The notes beneath the pieces were generated by a model. The model saw only the letters and a program-made list of their open reading frames with translations, ran no database searches and was not told the origin of the DNA. The position numbers were made by a program, and so were the translations under genes. A DNA stretch of 64,000 bases from Nitrospirae bacterium MYbin3 (lineage in GTDB: Bacteria > Nitrospirota > Thermodesulfovibrionia > Thermodesulfovibrionales > Dissulfurispiraceae). Below, piece by piece: positions 27,756 to 39,212 of this stretch. The stretch lies in NCBI GenBank assembly GCA_002753335.1, contig PEAD01000001.1, positions 62,001 to 126,000 of the forward strand, written 5' to 3'. The first letter of the stretch is position 1. Each line of letters starts with the position of its first letter.

Positions 27756-29225
27756 TTACGGCAAGTTAATCAATTTCTTTGCAAGTTCAGGCATGTCAGA
27801 TAACAATTTTTCTTCATTCCCCGCAATACATTTAGAAGAACCTATTGATTCTGTTTCCATTGTTACCATATTAAAGCGTTTAGCTTGAAGAACTACAGAC
27901 TGGCCAAGGGTTGAGAGTTTTCCTGTTATGGCATTCTTAGCTGACAGCCAACCGCTCATCTGTAAAACCTGTTTGTCATCCATTAAAACAGCGTCCTGAA
28001 GTTTAAGCTCATTCAATACTTGCAATAAGTTTTCCCTGTTTATGAGTTGGAATTTGCCGAATTTCAGTAACTCCTCACGAAGGGCATCCGCCAGAATGAG
28101 CGCTGCGACCTTATATGCCTCTGTTGCTTCAAAATCATAAACAATAATTCTTGTCTTGTTTGTTTCATCAGGCTGCTTCTCGGTTATTTCTTTTATTTTT
28201 ACTTTTTGAACATTAGTTAATGTAAGAGTTAGTTTGCTTTCTTCTCTCACCTGCTTTTCACGCTCGGCCTTTTCCTGTGCTTCTCTTAGCTTGGCGATTC
28301 TGATCTGTTCAGCTCGTTCTTTCTCAAGCCGCTGCTGTTCAGCCTGTTCACGCTCTAAGCGTTCCCGTTCCTCTCTTAGCTTGGCGATTCTGATCTGTTC
28401 AGCTCGTTCTTTCTCAAGCCGTTGCTGTTCAGCCTGTTCACGCTCTAAGCGTTCCCGTTCCTCTCTTAGCTTGGCGATTCTGATCTGTTCAGCTCGTTCT
28501 TTCTCAAGCCGCTGCTGTTCAGCCTGTTCACGCTCTAAGCGTTCCCGTTCCTCTCTTAGCTTGGCGATGCGTTCAGCTTTATCTTTCTCTGTAGTGTCTT
28601 TTTGGCCTAAAAATTTACCCTTACGGAGCGCTAAAGAAAGCAACTTTCCTTTTGCATTATCAAAAAAATAACGATATGAAGCTTTGCTAATATCTTCAAT
28701 ATCAGACTTCGAATTAAAACTAGTTTTGGGATAGTCGCTGTACTGAAGCTTTTCTCCTGTTTCAATATTTATAAATGTATAGGAATAAGCACTTGTTATA
28801 GTATTATATGAAAATTTCCGGTCTGCTATCATAGCAAAATCTGCGTATAATGCCTTACCTACCCGTCTTGTTAAGGCATAATGATCTTTTTCTACATCAT
28901 ATAGAGATAGAGTCTTTCCATTCAGTACTGCTTTGACTTCTTTTTCAGGAACTATTTCATATATGCCGGTAGTATTTAGCAATTCTCCGGTACGTTTGTA
29001 TGTATCTTCCTTAAATGTTTCTTCAGAATCCCATGCCCATCCTCTAGGACCAAGAGTGGTTCTTGTATAATCTGAAAAGGTCATAATAAAGACTGTAATC
29101 TTTGGGGTCATCGGCGGATTTTGAGTGGTTCTTACTTCGATTTCAGCACAGGAAGTTAATAAAAATACGGACAACAGGAATAAGCAGAGATAATACCTTT
29201 TAAAAACGTAAGATTTGTTAGTCAT
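27756..29225 (-). CDS. Lipoprotein with charged coiled-coil repeats and C-terminal CsgG/TolB-N-like domain
   Basis: Lipobox LLTSC; 30-aa repeats; C-terminal IIVYDF...F.LINRENL.QVLNELKLQ...ITGKLS pattern. Confidence 0.65.
   Translation of the reverse strand: MTNKSYVFKRYYLCLFLLSVFLLTSCAEIEVRTTQNPPMTPKITVFIMTFSDYTRTTLGPRGWAWDSEETFKEDTYKRTGELLNTTGIYEIVPEKEVKAVLNGKTLSLYDVEKDHYALTRRVGKALYADFAMIADRKFSYNTITSAYSYTFINIETGEKLQYSDYPKTSFNSKSDIEDISKASYRYFFDNAKGKLLSLALRKGKFLGQKDTTEKDKAERIAKLREERERLEREQAEQQRLEKERAEQIRIAKLREERERLEREQAEQQRLEKERAEQIRIAKLREERERLEREQAEQQRLEKERAEQIRIAKLREAQEKAEREKQVREESKLTLTLTNVQKVKIKEITEKQPDETNKTRIIVYDFEATEAYKVAALILADALREELLKFGKFQLINRENLLQVLNELKLQDAVLMDDKQVLQMSGWLSAKNAITGKLSTLGQSVVLQAKRFNMVTMETESIGSSKCIAGNEEKLLSDMPELAKKLINLP
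28282..28568. repeat. Intragenic 90-bp tandem repeat, about 3.2 copies
   Basis: TTGGCGAT at 28291, 28381, 28471, 28561; copies identical except a C/T change at 28422. Confidence 0.95.
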
Positions 29226-29489
29226 TACCATCCTCTTTAAATATTGACCATTGATTACAGCCACTATTAGCAAATTCCAGTACTGGCTGGCTTTAAAAGA
29301 TAAATGCAGAATAGCATATTATTGCTATAAAAATATCTCAACTAGCAGGCACGACTACCGAATTGGGATTGAACAACAATTTGCAGCAAAATACTTTTAA
29401 AGATTTCCACTTACTATAGTGATGATTATCAGTAAGCCCATCACGCTCTATTTCAGGAAGCAAGTTTTTAAGAGCAGCGATCAATATCA

Positions 29490-30974
29490 TCATTCAATTC
29501 TTTTCAATGTAGTACTGCAAGGCGCGGGGCAACCACCCCAATACTCATCAATAGAAACTTTTTCAATTCTGATACTATTCCACTCCGCACACAGTCTTTT
29601 CTGCTGTCCATTGAATACTTTTTCGTTTGGTTTATTAATATCAAAAATATATACTGTGTCATTACGACCAACTAATTCTTTTGCTACCTCTCTTGTCAAC
29701 GTTACATTCTTAAACGAATCCAAAACCTCATCTAATGATTCGAGTCTATATTGGATACTAAGTTTGTTCCCATCATAATAACCTGAAAACTTATAACCGT
29801 TGCTGTTAATACCAGATATATTTGAGTTAACCTGTTTTATGTCAAGTTTGACATATTTGCCAGTACCACAATTATACACCTCCCACTTTCCAGTAAAATT
29901 AATTCCAGTGGTAAAATCCGATTGAGGTATTGATTTCATGGTGAGTTCCCGTTTCTCTTTTTCAAGTTTCTGTCTTTCTTCCTCAAGGCTCTTTTTTTCT
30001 GCCATTAGAGCCTTTGTCTGTTCCAACTCTTCTCGCTCTTTTTTTAGCTTTTCTTTTTCTTCCTGCAACTTCTTGCTCTCTTCGCTGACTTCTGTTGAAA
30101 TAGATAATCTTTCGGCATAGGTAACACTCGACTTTGCCAATTGGAACACAAAGTCACCACCTTCGTCCCCAGAGTTTTTTATGCCTTGGTATTGCGGAGT
30201 CTGGTCAGCTTTTCCTATTACTCGATTGCGTATATGTTTTCTGAATAAATCATCCGCTGTAATTTTGCTCTGGTTAGCTTCTTTAAGTCCTTTGATAAAG
30301 GCATCAGCAAAAACCGAATGTTTGCCGCCTCCAATATCAGACACAGGCTCATTGCCGCCGCTTGCCATAAGTGTTCGTGAAGGTTTTTCAAGCATTCTTG
30401 ATATATATTTTTCAATATCTGTTTTGCTTCCAAGGTCAACTCCTGTGTCTCTGGCAAAAGTTCCTGAGTAGCAACTATCAGAAACAATGAGGATATGATT
30501 AGAAGATATACGTTTAAGGTATGCTGTTATGTCATCAGCTATAATCCAGTTGGCAGGATTGTCGCTCTCTGCATCAACCGGTAGCCAATACGCCTTATCC
30601 GAAGACTTGTCGAACTGTCCATGACCAGCATAATAAACAAGAAAATGGTCATCCGCCCTAAGCTGATTTTTGAATTTGTTTATAGAGGTTATTATCTCTG
30701 CCCTCGTAGCATTGAGCAGGAGTTTGGTTTTGAATCCGAATTTGTCGGCAAGGACTTTTTCTATAACTTTCGCATCTTCTACGGCTGTGGACAGTTTGTT
30801 AAGGTGTTTATAGTTGTTGTTGCCGATAATGAGGGCGTAGTAGTTTCCACTTACGGCAGATGTGGTCTCAGCGAATTTCTCTTTGCCCTTAACCTTGACA
30901 GCCCTGTCTGCTTCAGAATAAGTCGATGCCGAGAACATCAGAACAGCTATTAGCAGAATAGAGAGTTTCTTCAT
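29490..30974 (-). CDS. Exported caspase-family (peptidase C14) protein with coiled coil and unknown C-terminal domain
   Basis: Signal peptide; YALIIGNNNY, YYAGHG (catalytic His), SDSCYSG (catalytic Cys), HSVF, GDFVF. Confidence 0.85.
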   Translation of the reverse strand: MKKLSILLIAVLMFSASTYSEADRAVKVKGKEKFAETTSAVSGNYYALIIGNNNYKHLNKLSTAVEDAKVIEKVLADKFGFKTKLLLNATRAEIITSINKFKNQLRADDHFLVYYAGHGQFDKSSDKAYWLPVDAESDNPANWIIADDITAYLKRISSNHILIVSDSCYSGTFARDTGVDLGSKTDIEKYISRMLEKPSRTLMASGGNEPVSDIGGGKHSVFADAFIKGLKEANQSKITADDLFRKHIRNRVIGKADQTPQYQGIKNSGDEGGDFVFQLAKSSVTYAERLSISTEVSEESKKLQEEKEKLKKEREELEQTKALMAEKKSLEEERQKLEKEKRELTMKSIPQSDFTTGINFTGKWEVYNCGTGKYVKLDIKQVNSNISGINSNGYKFSGYYDGNKLSIQYRLESLDEVLDSFKNVTLTREVAKELVGRNDTVYIFDINKPNEKVFNGQQKRLCAEWNSIRIEKVSIDEYWGGCPAPCSTTLKRIE

Positions 30975-31205
30975 TCTTCCCCTCACTTGCAGGATAATAA
31001 AATTATACTACAAACAGTATGAAGATAAAGGCAGGACGTTTATTCCCAATAGAAATATTGACTGTCACCCATCTTAACAAAAATGAAGATTTCAGGAAGT
31101 TATTTTTACACATTCAACGCCTTTTATAGCTAACAACATTTCTCATTTGATTATTTTCCCTTGCTCGCTTCCAGAAAACCCCTCACGGAGGTTAGATGCT
31201 TGGTG

Positions 31206-31298: not shown

Positions 31299-31353
31299 TT
31301 AACTTCGCTCCCGATTATCAGCGATCCAAGCCTTTTTTTATATAGGCCAAACA

Positions 31354-31824
31354 TTATCTTTTCATCATGGTTCCGATGCCCATAAGAGCGATACCATTGG
31401 ACATGAATGCGAGATTCAACACCGAGTTGACTGCATGAAGCCTTCTGAATTTAGCTCGCATGGGATGGTCTTCGGCAGTGGTTTCAAAGGACGGCACTGA
31501 ACGCTTTACATCCTGTATTTGCGGATAGAGACCGAGAGTTACATAGAGTGCGATGCATATGGACATAACCGCTAAACCAAGAGACACTCTGAAGGCCGTA
31601 ATAGTAAGCAATTGACATACACCCCAAAGAAGCAGCAAGGCCAGCACGGACATTCCTATAGTGAAGATGAAATATGAAGGGAAAAGGCTCCCTACAATTT
31701 CTCCGGCTTTATCCCTTGCGTAAGTCTTGAATATTACTGGAGTAACTACAAAGGTAAATATGAAAACTCCGCCCGTCCATAAGCCGAGAGTTAGAATATA
31801 AAAAAAGTATCCCCAGTTCCTCAT
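31354..31824 (-). CDS. DUF4149-like membrane protein
   Basis: WTGG..FTFVVTPVIF, AGEIVG.LFP.YF, FRRLH..S.LN. Confidence 0.8.
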   Translation of the reverse strand: MRNWGYFFYILTLGLWTGGVFIFTFVVTPVIFKTYARDKAGEIVGSLFPSYFIFTIGMSVLALLLLWGVCQLLTITAFRVSLGLAVMSICIALYVTLGLYPQIQDVKRSVPSFETTAEDHPMRAKFRRLHAVNSVLNLAFMSNGIALMGIGTMMKR

Positions 31825-31945
31825 TAGTAAATTATAACCTTAATCAGACGATAAAAAATTATTTCATTAAAAGTCCATAACAAATACAATACAAGGCAAG
31901 GCAAATAATCTGATATCATATATGAAACATTAATAGGAGCAAATA

Positions 31946-32362
31946 ATGCATTTTACTTTAATCGATTACTCCGAGCAATATTTCACAACTCTTGATAAGG
32001 ACAAAATACCCGAAGAACGGACAGGGAAGTTCATACAAGTGATTAACCACAATATAGGCATGGAGTATTTAATCATGTCGCCAATAGAACTCTCCTTTTT
32101 CCACGCAAACATAGCCGAGAAGTTTCTGTCGGAGCAGGGAATTCAAGGTTATTACAACGCCAAGAAAGACAAATATTATATCAACAATCCAGAATGGGAG
32201 ATTGTGGGTGGCGGCATGTGGACATTGGACTCAGATAACAAAACACTTAGCTTTTCAGGCAAATCGCTTGCCTACGGAGATTTCTCACCTGATCGACTTA
32301 AAGAAAAAATCCTTGCTGCGGGAATGTTTTCTGACTACGCTTTGTTTGTTAATGGACGTTGA
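31946..32362 (+). CDS. Hypothetical protein with Janus/Ocnus (PHPT1)-like motifs
   Basis: GKFIQV, FHANI, EIVGGG, KTLSFSGKSLAYG; AGGAG RBS. Confidence 0.6.
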   Translation: MHFTLIDYSEQYFTTLDKDKIPEERTGKFIQVINHNIGMEYLIMSPIELSFFHANIAEKFLSEQGIQGYYNAKKDKYYINNPEWEIVGGGMWTLDSDNKTLSFSGKSLAYGDFSPDRLKEKILAAGMFSDYALFVNGR

Positions 32363-32404
32363 CCGCAAACTTTATGCAACTCATATAAAATTCAGGATAA
32401 GATT

Positions 32405-32731
32405 ATGATTCCTGATGCATTCAGATATTTCGGTGAGTTCATTGGAGTGATTGCATGCGGCTTTGTATTGATTCACATGTATAATGAGGGGATTAAATAT
32501 TTGCTGTATGTGCTTGTTACGGTTATTATTGATTCTGCTATTTCATATGCTGTGCAGATAAAACAACTATTTTCTCTCCCGCTTTTTTCACAAGGGATTA
32601 TGGTATTTAGCCAAATATATGTTCTGTATTACATCCTTACCAAGTATAAAAAAGAAAGCAGAATATGGATTTTAGGGACGTTTATAGTAGGGGCAGTTAT
32701 TCATAATATAGGCATCATGTTCAAAAAATAA
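32405..32731 (+). CDS. Hypothetical membrane protein
   Basis: 108 aa with about four hydrophobic segments. Confidence 0.55.
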   Translation: MIPDAFRYFGEFIGVIACGFVLIHMYNEGIKYLLYVLVTVIIDSAISYAVQIKQLFSLPLFSQGIMVFSQIYVLYYILTKYKKESRIWILGTFIVGAVIHNIGIMFKK

Positions 32732-32759
32732 TATTAGCAGTATGTAAGGATGCTTTTGC

Positions 32760-32948
32760 GTGAATATATCCATTGAATACTGGGTTGTATGAAACTTTTT
32801 TTCCCAGGCTTCTCGTGTAGAAGCAGAACTAAATGCAAAATATCCTGATCCGACCATTAAGATAGTTGAAGGCTCAGGTGGCATTTTTGAAGTGAAGTAT
32901 GACGACAAGATAATATTCTCTAAGCTCGGGAACTCTTACCATTGGTGA
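32760..32948 (+). pseudogene. Rdx/SelW-family selenoprotein-like gene, probably degenerate (WxxU, truncated)
   Basis: GTG start; MNISIEYWVV-U(TGA 32790-32792)-NFFSQASRVEAEL...EGSGGIFEVKYDDKIIFSK; SECIS-like hairpin 32808-32824. Confidence 0.7.
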
Positions 32949-33060
32949 TTATTGATTGTAACGTGCATAAGTTTGCATAGAGCCAGCCCGCAAGATTTTA
33001 GGAAGCTTTCCATATCTATAACACACTGCTAGGCACAGGAAATTGGTTGTAAGAAATCTC

Positions 33061-33666
33061 TTATTCGGATTTTCTTTTTTTCTCTATGATTTTCACTGTT
33101 ATTTCGATACGCTCGTCTGGATTGTCATTTAGGTCCCGTGGCTGGCTTACAATTTTATCAGCCACTTCCATTCCTGAAACAACCTCACCAAAAACTGTGT
33201 ACTGCCTGTCGAGGGAAAAAGCGTCTCCTACGCATATAAAAAATTGTGAACCAGCACCGTCAGGATTATTCGTTCTCGCCATCGAGAGTATGCCGCGTTT
33301 GTGAGGAGTAGAACTGAACTCCGCTTTCACAGTATATCCCGGACCACCAAGACCGTGTCGTGCTTTGTTGGTATCTTTGGAATTTGGATCTCCGCCCTGT
33401 ATCATAAAACCGGGGATGACACGGTGGAAAATAGTGCCGTCGTAAAAGCCTTTAGTTGCAAGTCCAATAAAATTATTCACATGGTTAGGTGCCAATTCAG
33501 GAAAAAATTTCAGCTCAATATTGCCGAACTTCGTCTCGATGACTGCTCTTGTTTCGGACATTTTTTTAGTTTCTTCTTTAGTAAACTGTTTGTTTTTCAT
33601 TTCGGAATAGGCTGAAAGAGCCCAAACCATACTTGCTATCAAAATTGTTAAACGCAATATTTTCAT
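33061..33666 (-). CDS. Cyclophilin-type peptidyl-prolyl isomerase
   Basis: FHRVIPGFMIQGGDP, LSMAR, GSQFFI, YTVFGEV. Confidence 0.95.
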   Translation of the reverse strand: MKILRLTILIASMVWALSAYSEMKNKQFTKEETKKMSETRAVIETKFGNIELKFFPELAPNHVNNFIGLATKGFYDGTIFHRVIPGFMIQGGDPNSKDTNKARHGLGGPGYTVKAEFSSTPHKRGILSMARTNNPDGAGSQFFICVGDAFSLDRQYTVFGEVVSGMEVADKIVSQPRDLNDNPDERIEITVKIIEKKRKSE

Positions 33667-37310: not shown

Positions 37311-39212
37311 TTATTTTAACATGAACTTGCGTACATCCCCAACACGAAGGGTTATTCTGTTTGTGTCGAGGTATTCGAGGAATGGCAGTGCGTATTTGCG
37401 AGTTGTGTTTAGGATGTCTCTGAATTCGGCCACGGTCATCTCCTGCTTTTTCGCAAAGAAATTTTTAAGCAGCAAAAGCATTTTGTCATGCAGCTCTTTT
37501 GTTATATATATCGAATCGTTGATCCTCACGAGCGTGGCTTCCTTAGCGAGCAGTTTCAGGATGTCGGCCAGCTCTTTTTCGTTCATCCCTAGCTTTGCGG
37601 CCAGCTCCTGTCTGGTCGGCGGCTGAAATTCTTCCTTGTCGAGCGCAGGCAATATTTTGTCTTTAATTCCTGAGCCGGTCTGGACAGCAGATGCTTTATA
37701 GCTGCTAAGCCGCACCAACTCTTTTTCTATCGCGATCTCTCCTATAATTTCTGTAAGGCTGTCGAAGGCGGTTATATTTTTCAATTGGATAAGCGCCTTG
37801 GCTCGAAGCTCTTCTTTTGTTATTCCTGCTTTAAGAGGATTCTCTTTATGGAATACTCTGAGTGTTGATAGTACAAATTCCTTGAATGTATTAAATGCTT
37901 CTTTATGGAAAAACAGCTCTCCGCATTTTACCAGTCTGCTATTTTTCACAAGGTTGTCAACCGTCAGCTTTATTTCTGGCATGTCACCCTTAAGCCATCC
38001 TTCTATCTGGGGCAATCTGCAGCCCGCAAGACCGGAGCGCTTTATTTTGGTTTCTATTTTTTCGCTCATCGATCCTTTCTCAAAAACCATAAGGTCTTCT
38101 GTTCCCATCGAGCGTTTTCTTTTTACAGGATATGGATCGAGCACTTCGCCGCCGCCTATTGTTTCGAGTGGGGAGAATCTGCGTATGATGTATCTGTCTC
38201 CCGAAAGAACCACGACAGGCTCTTCAAGCCTAAACTGGCAATAACAGGCCTCTTCGGCCTTTGCTTCATCTGTGCCGTAAAGTACTATTCTTGCAACTGT
38301 TTCTGAAGTGCCTGTATAAAAATGGACAAGGCTTCTGGTCTTTATAGAAGGCGCACCTTTAAGCAATTCGAGCTGTGCATCTATGGATTTAGTTGGCGTC
38401 AGCCTTTCTGATGATACAACCGTATCTCCCCTTCTCAGCAATTCTTTGTCAACACCTTGCAGATTCAACCCTATGCGCTGTCCTGCAAAGGCTTTCTGCA
38501 CACCTTTGCCATGGCTCTGCAGGCCTCTTACCTTGCTGGTAATCTTTGATGGAAGTATTTCGACAGGAGTGTCTATAGAGATGCTTCCGGCAAGGGCGGT
38601 GCCGGTCACAACAGTGCCAAAACCTTTAAGTGTAAAAACCCTGTCTATGGGAAGCCTGAAAAGCCCGTTCATAAGCTTAGGTTTTACATTTGCGGCCGCT
38701 TGCTTTATTTTGTCCCGCAAGAGCTCGATATTCATTCCTGTCTTGGCAGAAACAGCCACAATCTCGGCATTTTCGAGAAATGTGTTCTTGATGAAATTTT
38801 TCAGATCATCCTGAACAAGGGCAAGCCAATCGGCATCCACGAGATCAGCCTTTGTGACAACAACAATGCCGTTTTTAATCTTGAGCAGCTCGCAGATCGC
38901 CAAATGTTCTCTGCTTTGGGGCATGATGCCTTCGTCGGCAGCAATAACCATAGCGACTATATCTATACCGCCTGCCCCGGCCAGCATGTTTTTTATGAGG
39001 CGTTCGTGGCCCGGCACATCAACAATACCTACGGTCAGGCCATCAGGGTAAGAGAGGTTGGCAAACCCGAGGTCTATGGTAATTCCCCGTTCTTTTTCTT
39101 CTTTTAGCCTGTCGGGGTCAACCCCGGTCAAAGCCTTGACCAGAGAGCTTTTGCCGTGGTCTATGTGTCCGGCGGTGCCGAGTATTACATTCTTGGGCTG
39201 CTCAATGCTCAT
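37311..39212 (-). CDS. selB: Selenocysteine-specific elongation factor SelB
   Basis: [27 protein letters not shown]-terminal winged-helix [12 protein letters not shown]. Confidence 0.96.

Follow-up and report, generated by a model that had tools for sequence, protein, structure and literature searches.

A Janus/Ocnus family protein of Nitrospirota with the predicted fold of human PHPT1, a candidate bacterial phosphohistidine phosphatase

The window analyzed in this study is a stretch of 64,000 nt from contig PEAD01000001.1 of Nitrospirae bacterium MYbin3 (GCA_002753335.1, positions 62,001–126,000), and all positions given below are those of the window. An open reading frame (ORF) of 138 amino acid residues at 31946..32362 on the + strand was identified as a PHPT1-like gene of the Janus/Ocnus family from its family, profile homology and predicted fold. 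The ORF starts with ATG, and direct reading of the sequence found AGGAG, a Shine-Dalgarno-like element, 6 nt ahead of the start codon (31935..31939, + strand). A preliminary description of this gene, which was made from the DNA letters and likened its product to the phosphohistidine phosphatase PHPT1, had listed the motifs GKFIQVI, FFHANIAEKF, WEIVGGGMW, and NKTLSFSGKSLAYG. All four were present in the translation and in that order. Scans of 31300–33200 for promoters and terminators gave no signal exceeding shuffled expectation. A look-up of sequencing runs containing this stretch gave two DNA runs, at a word share of 0.05, and no RNA run.

A HMMER search of 1.84 billion representatives recovered 215 clusters (50% identity) as the family of the window protein at E ≤ 1e-3, 92 at E ≤ 1e-10 and 5 at E ≤ 1e-30, and relatives were tied to the window protein at E values of 1e-20 to 1e-40. 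Among the best 150 of the 215 matches, all but one ranged from 64 to 184 amino acid residues in length. The exception, P0112, is a leucine-rich-repeat protein of 4090 amino acid residues that was excluded on inspection, because its match was driven by repeats and judged spurious. The family alignment consisted of 130 of 154 sequences, after removal of 24 that were fragmentary or had aberrant tails. Its mean column identity was 21%, and its members shared the signature G-K-F ... Y/F-H-A-x-I-x-x-R/K-F ... G-G-G ... S-x-A-Y-G. Judged from these sequences, it is a conserved and real gene family. P0125 (128 amino acid residues), which was excluded from the 130-sequence alignment, contained an N-terminal P-loop NTPase-like segment (GQPGCGKTT...) joined to a PHPT1-like C-terminal half just past the position of the catalytic His. 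It is probably a chimera of assembly or gene calling.

The top Pfam match of the window protein was PF05005 (Janus/Ocnus), with 19.4 bits and an E value of 0.0011. PF05005 also matched 106 of the 130 members at an E value of 0.01 or lower, the best being 1e-8, and 23 of 25 hand-picked relatives, 19 of which scored over the curated cut-off, with a maximum of 39.2 bits. Moreover, the profile of the 130 members retrieved three human PHPT1 sequences from PDB at E values of 6.5e-7 to 1e-6, and the following match had an E value of 0.51; with a profile of as few as the five closest sequences, PHPT1 was already the top match (E = 0.014). The search against the Ocnus family, which had been suggested at the outset as a check, was therefore positive for the family. 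In a phmmer search of PDB with P0176, the best Pfam scorer, which has Arg at position 91, PHPT1 was aligned over 39 C-terminal residues only (E = 0.033).

AlphaFold2 with the 130-sequence alignment gave a very confident model of the window protein, with a predicted local distance difference test (pLDDT) of 96.1 and a predicted template modeling score (pTM) of 0.90. According to DSSP, the strands of the model were at residues 2–7, 24–34, 39–46, 84–95, 100–104, and 132–135, and its helices at 53–63 and 118–125. The model also contained a helix at residues 8–15 and a small hairpin at residues 68–79. PHPT1 itself is described as having six strands and two helices (passages of PMC4817053). Foldseek returned five PDB matches at E ≤ 1e-3, all of them PHPT1 chains with a probability of 1.00, and the next match had an E value of 0.05. 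The predicted fold is that of PHPT1, a six-stranded sheet flanked by two helices, and of no other solved structure, which is what the preliminary description had anticipated. We regard the assignment to this fold and to the Janus/Ocnus family as practically secure. Conversely, that 31946..32362 is a chance ORF with chance resemblance to the PHPT1 motifs, and not a real gene, had nothing in its favor except that the single sequence scored below the Pfam cut-off. It is refuted by the homolog family, whose hundreds of members are equally long and are spread over several phyla, by the PHPT1 profile match and by the very confident fold prediction, and a ribosome binding site is present; its probability is negligible.

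According to passages of PMC4817053, the catalytic site of PHPT1 consists of Lys21, His53, Ala54, Arg78, Ser94, and Ala96; there, the Ser94 hydroxyl holds the phosphate together with the main-chain NH of His53, Ala54 and Ala96, and Lys21 and Arg78 serve in substrate anchoring or transition-state stabilization. His53 is described in part of PMC11277029 as the general base by which water is activated to hydrolyze the substrate directly, with no phospho-enzyme intermediate, and the hydrolysis of phosphohistidine by PHPT1 as insensitive to vanadate and okadaic acid. In the printed HMMER alignments, Gly88-Gly89-Gly90 of the window protein (with Met91, 32207..32218, + strand) aligned with GGG of PHPT1, Met91 with its Arg78, and the loop Ser107-Leu-Ala109-Tyr110-Gly111 (32264..32278, + strand) with S-M-A-Y-G, which contains Ser94 and Ala96 of the phosphate site. 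Because the N-terminal half of the family failed to retrieve PHPT1, His53 and Lys28 of the window protein were placed by Pfam alignment ranges, from which their profile positions were derived without a printed residue alignment. His53 fell on position 44 of the Ocnus profile in all 10 members whose alignment begins 12 or fewer residues before this His, and Lys28 on position 16 in all 4 members whose alignment begins 8 or fewer residues before this Lys. These placements support His53 as the counterpart of PHPT1 His53, and Lys28 is likely the equivalent of PHPT1 Lys21. Lys28 (codon AAG, 32027..32029, + strand) is in the G-K-F motif on the strand 24–34, and His53-Ala54 (codons CAC GCA, 32102..32107, + strand), the predicted catalytic base and phosphate-binding backbone, are at the N-terminus of the helix 53–63. 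The top matches of the N-terminal-half profile were the C-terminal domains of BRSK1/2 (PDB 5iri and 4yom; E = 0.023 and 0.081), which covered the G-K-F...H-A-N-I-V-E-R-F segment and left the catalytic His unmatched. This resemblance was judged to be chance, because no such fold was among the matches of the structure search.

The residues that had been picked out at first as kept, the catalytic His, the upstream Lys and the Ser of the S-x-A-Y-G loop, were indeed conserved across the bacterial family, and neither of the two findings that were said at the outset to refute the assignment, an unrelated fold or a His not conserved among homologs, was observed. His53, Gly89, and Ser107 were invariant in all 130 sequences; Lys28 was found in 126, Gly88 in 129, Gly90 in 120, Tyr110 in 122, and Gly111 in 129. 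Ala54 was found in 108 (83%) and Ala109 in 102 (78%), Gly27 and Phe29 were kept in at least 90% of the members, and position 59 was basic (R or K) in 96 of 130. Hence, the counterparts of five of the six catalytic-site residues of PHPT1, with Lys28 as the likely one of Lys21, are conserved, the exception being the position of Arg78. The predicted phosphate-binding and general-base machinery is intact, and the most likely function is hydrolysis by a PHPT1-like mechanism. The replacement of the Arg after GGG by Met, also pointed out in the preliminary description, was confirmed by the alignment, and the site (position 91) varied across the family, with H in 38, R in 21, K in 20, M in 13, L in 9, Y in 7, F in 6, and A in 4 of the 130 members, besides others.

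Alternatively, the window protein might be a catalytically dead or very weak protein of the PHPT1 fold that binds phosphate, phosphoproteins or another ligand as a regulator. To our knowledge, no function has been assigned to the insect Janus/Ocnus paralogs. Met at the Arg78 position in the window protein and in 13 of 130 members, as well as the two lineage-specific insertions described below, would be compatible with a loss of activity. However, the invariance of His53 and Ser107 over 130 sequences at a mean column identity of 21% is hard to explain without chemistry at the site, and position 91 was H, R, or K in 79 of the 130 members. We consider the dead or very weak enzyme improbable.

Given that the fold and the conserved core residues match those of PHPT1, dephosphorylation of phosphohistidine is likely, and on balance the bacterial Janus/Ocnus protein is probably a metal-independent phosphatase of the P-N bond of phosphohistidine. 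The N-terminus of the helix 53–63, through the backbone NH of His53 and of Ala54, and the Ser107-x-Ala109 loop, through the hydroxyl of Ser and the NH of Ala, would together make up the pocket that holds the phosphoryl group. Lys28 would anchor the substrate or stabilize the transition state. The role of Arg78, which is Met91 here, may have been dropped or taken by another basic side chain, for which the conserved Arg/Lys at position 59 is a candidate.

Two-component and phosphorelay signaling in bacteria runs on phosphohistidine as its central currency. The 2.93 Mb genome of the window, which is 93.7% complete, had a very high density of two-component genes, with 82 HisKA matches (75 over the cut-off) and 12 Hpt matches, and contained neither HPr of the phosphotransferase system (PTS) nor SixA over the cut-off. 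Given the many HisKA and Hpt domains and the lack of HPr, kinases and histidine phosphotransfer (HPt) domains are the obvious phosphohistidine pool. The likely substrates would be phosphohistidines exposed on histidine kinases or on HPt domains, and specific action on them is a plausible inference. PHPT1 is reported to dephosphorylate the bacterial kinase CheA in vitro (a passage of PMC11277029).

To survey gene neighborhoods, ORFs were called and clustered in 90 loci, which were reduced to 61 non-redundant loci, and the 35 same-strand ORFs found within 100 bp in the latter were scanned against Pfam. No gene neighbor was conserved across lineages in the 90 loci, where synteny was found at the level of lineages only. 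As no fixed gene partner was found, the specificity of the phosphatase may be broad and of the housekeeping type rather than that of a dedicated regulator. A convergent YceG/MltG-like gene adjoined the PHPT1-like gene in 36 of the 90 redundant loci. Among the scanned neighbors, hemB was directly upstream in three loci of the Thermodesulfovibrionales type, nadC was found in one locus and dCTP deaminase in two, and the remaining ones included oligopeptide permease, OsmC, a HEAT-repeat protein and a peptidase. Such varied metabolic operons would suit a protein with the same fold and catalysis that acts on a substrate other than protein phosphohistidine, such as phospholysine, a small N-phosphorylated metabolite, a phosphorylated nucleotide or another phosphoramidate or phosphate ester. 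Similarly, PHPT1 is reported to dephosphorylate chemically made phospholysine in vitro (a passage of PMC6429109), the variability of position 91 could reflect different substrates, and in a eukaryotic cluster of ESM Atlas, whose commonest phylum is Chlorophyta, the Ocnus domain is fused to a NUDIX NAD(+) diphosphatase, which is a lead only. No metabolic neighbor was consistent across lineages, however, and the conserved residues are those that bind the bare phosphoryl group in PHPT1, which do not discriminate between substrates. Another substrate is rather unlikely in our assessment. Two neighbors with two-component domains were observed individually. In a metagenome-assembled genome (MAG) of Ca. 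Magnetobacteriaceae, a gene for an OmpR-type response regulator (L084:5360-6004, + strand) shared an overlap of 4 bp with the start of the PHPT1-like gene. In a Nitrospirae MAG, a gene for a hybrid kinase of 1101 amino acid residues (PAS-HisKA-HATPase-REC-Hpt; L042:6452-9757, + strand) was 50 bp downstream of the PHPT1-like gene. They are isolated cases and not a pattern.

Several observations weigh against a phosphohistidine phosphatase of the PHPT1 type. The Pfam score of the window protein itself was below the curated cut-off of 23 bits, and no PHPT1 came up in PDB at E ≤ 10, either in phmmer with the window protein or with a profile built from the N-terminal halves of 31 members, so that the HMMER alignments to PHPT1 were restricted to the C-terminal half. 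The position of Arg78 is Met91 in the window protein and variable across the family, and the absent Arg is the main ground for doubt about the rate or the substrate. No conserved neighbor tied the gene to two-component or PTS genes in the 61 non-redundant loci. The 35 scanned neighbors included one response regulator, one hybrid kinase and one weak receiver-like match (L006), which is no more than expected for genomes so rich in two-component genes. The occurrence of the gene was patchy, as it was found in 3 of 34 genomes of the family to which the window belongs and in 30 of 64 genomes of another family. Moreover, SixA-like genes, counted at E ≤ 1e-10 with their co-occurrence tallied by hand, were found in 212 of 401 sampled Nitrospirota genomes and showed no complementarity with the PHPT1-like gene: they were found in 22 of 59 strong carriers and 190 of 342 others and, within the family richest in carriers, in 11 of 30 carriers and 13 of 34 non-carriers. 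Thus, the counts do not point to a replacement of either gene by the other. Finally, the function of the bacterial members rests on homology.

Among known proteins, human PHPT1 (PDB 2hw4, 2nmm, and 2ai6), a phosphohistidine phosphatase of 14 kDa, is the one that the window protein would most resemble in its working. Different from PHPT1, the window protein is from a bacterial host, has Met for Arg78, and has an N-terminal half too diverged from that of PHPT1 for HMMER. It also has an extra N-terminal helix (8–15) with a loop, at residues 8–23 (31967..32014, + strand), which was judged from the DSSP assignment and element counts to be additional to the PHPT1 core. The second insertion, of about 13 extra residues, follows the His helix and precedes the GGG strand, and the spacing from His to GGG was 33 to 37 in all 130 bacterial members and 22 in PHPT1. 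The Ocnus profile, in which positions 33–101 matched residues 42–123, had the same spacing of 22 as PHPT1, which also supports His53 of the window protein as the counterpart of PHPT1 His53. By spacing and DSSP, this family-specific insertion corresponds to residues 64–83 (32135..32194, + strand), a hairpin with strands 68–70 and 77–79. Because the Arg78 feature was lacking, two lineage-specific insertions were present and the family comparison covered bacterial-type sequences, the window protein was not called a PHPT1 ortholog. It is filed as a member of a separate bacterial subfamily of the Janus/Ocnus fold family. PF05005 as a whole also contains the insect janA/janB/ocn and orthologs of PHPT1, such as PHIP-1 of C. 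elegans, and many bacterial relatives pass its curated threshold. The Ocnus domain is also shared with plant and algal NUDIX-Ocnus fusions of the NAD(+) diphosphatase type, one of which was a structural match in ESM Atlas (template modeling score of 0.66 by query). Different from the single-domain bacterial proteins, these fusions are multi-domain and eukaryotic. AtNUDX19 is reportedly a plant NUDIX protein of the NAD(+) diphosphatase type.

Similar to the activity proposed here, SixA dephosphorylates phosphohistidine on signaling proteins. In line with the unrelated fold of SixA stated at the outset, no sequence relationship between SixA and the window protein was detected: the latter gave no match to NCBIfam (TIGR00249 and others) at E ≤ 10, and no SixA fold was among the structural matches. 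In passages of PMC7948535, SixA is placed in the histidine phosphatase superfamily and its reaction with NPr is described as phosphoryl transfer involving the active-site His, which is different from the direct hydrolysis described for PHPT1. In the same passages, SixA is the only bacterial phosphohistidine phosphatase named with proposed in vivo targets. Similarly, in the parts of PMC7948535, PMC6282199, PMC6429109, and PMC11277029 that deal with these enzymes, SixA is treated as bacterial, and PHPT1, PGAM5, and LHPP are treated as mammalian. No published account of a bacterial member of the PHPT1 or Janus/Ocnus type was found in a full-text search of a limited collection of papers. About half of the bacterial sequences already carry the Pfam domain in automatic annotation. 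The family is therefore an uncharacterized bacterial subfamily of a known enzyme family and not a new kind of enzyme. If its phosphatase function is confirmed, a second class of bacterial phosphohistidine phosphatases would be added. Moreover, the natural variation at the site of Arg78, with H, R, K, M and other residues, could clarify the role of this site in the human enzyme, and the bacterial family bears on the origin of PHPT1, whose fold is without another relative among solved structures. Tentatively, the PHPT1 type may represent a second, structurally unrelated class of bacterial phosphohistidine phosphatase that serves as a general phosphohistidine eraser on kinases and HPt domains in signaling-rich lineages, and from which animal PHPT1 descended; we hold this wider proposal to be possible but doubtful.

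Our survey of distribution and neighborhoods, as had been proposed for the gene, showed it to be mainly in Nitrospirota, to be patchy in its occurrence and to lack a conserved gene partner. The PHPT1-like gene was found in 61 of 401 sampled Nitrospirota genomes, 44 of 329 high-quality genomes and 37 of 162 genera. A few family members were, according to their record titles, from Planctomycetota, Verrucomicrobiota, Gammaproteobacteria, and Zixibacteria, and 4 of 301 genomes were positive in the phylum of one Planctomycetota-labeled carrier. A pattern scan of species-representative genomes, which, like that of viral contigs, was built on a closer alignment and is biased to close relatives, identified 60 loci. 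Nitrospirota-type titles, namely Nitrospirae/Nitrospirota, Nitrospiraceae, Thermodesulfovibrio(nales), Ca. Sulfobium, and Ca. Magnetobacteriaceae, accounted for 51 of them. The other nine were three Pirellulaceae and one each of Sedimentisphaerales, Planctomycetota, 'Deltaproteobacteria', Zixibacteria, 'uncultured bacterium', and 'Betaproteobacteria'. The match on the 'Betaproteobacteria' MAG contig (L077) agreed in contig number, coordinates (C4:6620-7024) and score with that in one of the sampled Nitrospirota genomes, and the taxonomy in its title is probably wrong. Further source names were an Akkermansiaceae MAG, a Gammaproteobacteria MAG and that of the cultured Thioflexithrix psekupsensis, whose homolog is P0266, and every source name seen for the bacterial members was 'hypothetical' or 'uncharacterized'. 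Two ESM Atlas clusters, with 343 and 114 members and Nitrospirota as the commonest phylum, were named automatically 'Janus/Ocnus domain-containing protein'. A search for relatives returned 243 matches, the best 120 of which were all of the bacterial type. For phages, no relative was found by tblastn against 50,697 phage records at E ≤ 1 or by the pattern scan of viral contigs, and the fold search of BFVD gave no match at E ≤ 1e-3, its best plausible one being a Tenacibaculum phage protein (E = 0.024, probability 0.98). Viral clusters in ESM Atlas are leads only.

In the window, a divergent gene for a DUF4149 membrane protein (31354–31824, − strand; Pfam E = 1.5e-17) is upstream of the PHPT1-like gene. 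On the other side, an ORF for a hydrophobic protein of 108 amino acid residues (32405..32731, + strand) begins 43 nt 3' of the PHPT1-like gene; it contains three hydrophobic stretches, and a Pfam scan gave no family for it. It is followed by an Rdx-family ORF (32760..32948, + strand) with an in-frame TGA at codon 11 (32790–32792). The preliminary description had noted a small membrane protein and an Rdx-like gene downstream on the same strand. Both genes are real, but a conserved association is not supported and they are regarded as neighbors only, because the neighbors in the window were beside homologs in none of 91 other loci, including those of two genomes of the same family.

The usual redox motif of Rdx/SelW proteins is CxxU. 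In the Rdx-like ORF, which starts with GTG and scored 45.6 bits against Pfam Rdx (E = 8.4e-12, cut-off 22.6) with the TGA read through, the motif reads W-V-V-U. About 16 nt past its UGA begins a hairpin (GGCUUCUC-GUGUA-GAAGC), and the 66-nt fold was no better than that of shuffles. Because SelA and SelB are encoded in the genome, the ORF is likely a genuine selenoprotein gene. An ORF of 633 amino acid residues about 4.4 kb away (37311–39212, − strand) contains a SelB winged-helix domain (PF09107, 75.2 bits) and encodes the selenocysteine elongation factor. Elsewhere in the window, a predicted lipoprotein of 505 amino acid residues (27756–29273, − strand) contains a charged segment (...RIAKLREERERLEREQAEQQRLEKERAEQI...) of about 30 residues that occurs in tandem in three nearly identical copies, and its C-terminus is weakly CsgG-like (22.7 bits). 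Adjoining its gene is that of a secreted caspase-domain protein of 498 amino acid residues (Peptidase_C14, 95.3 bits; 29490–30986, − strand).
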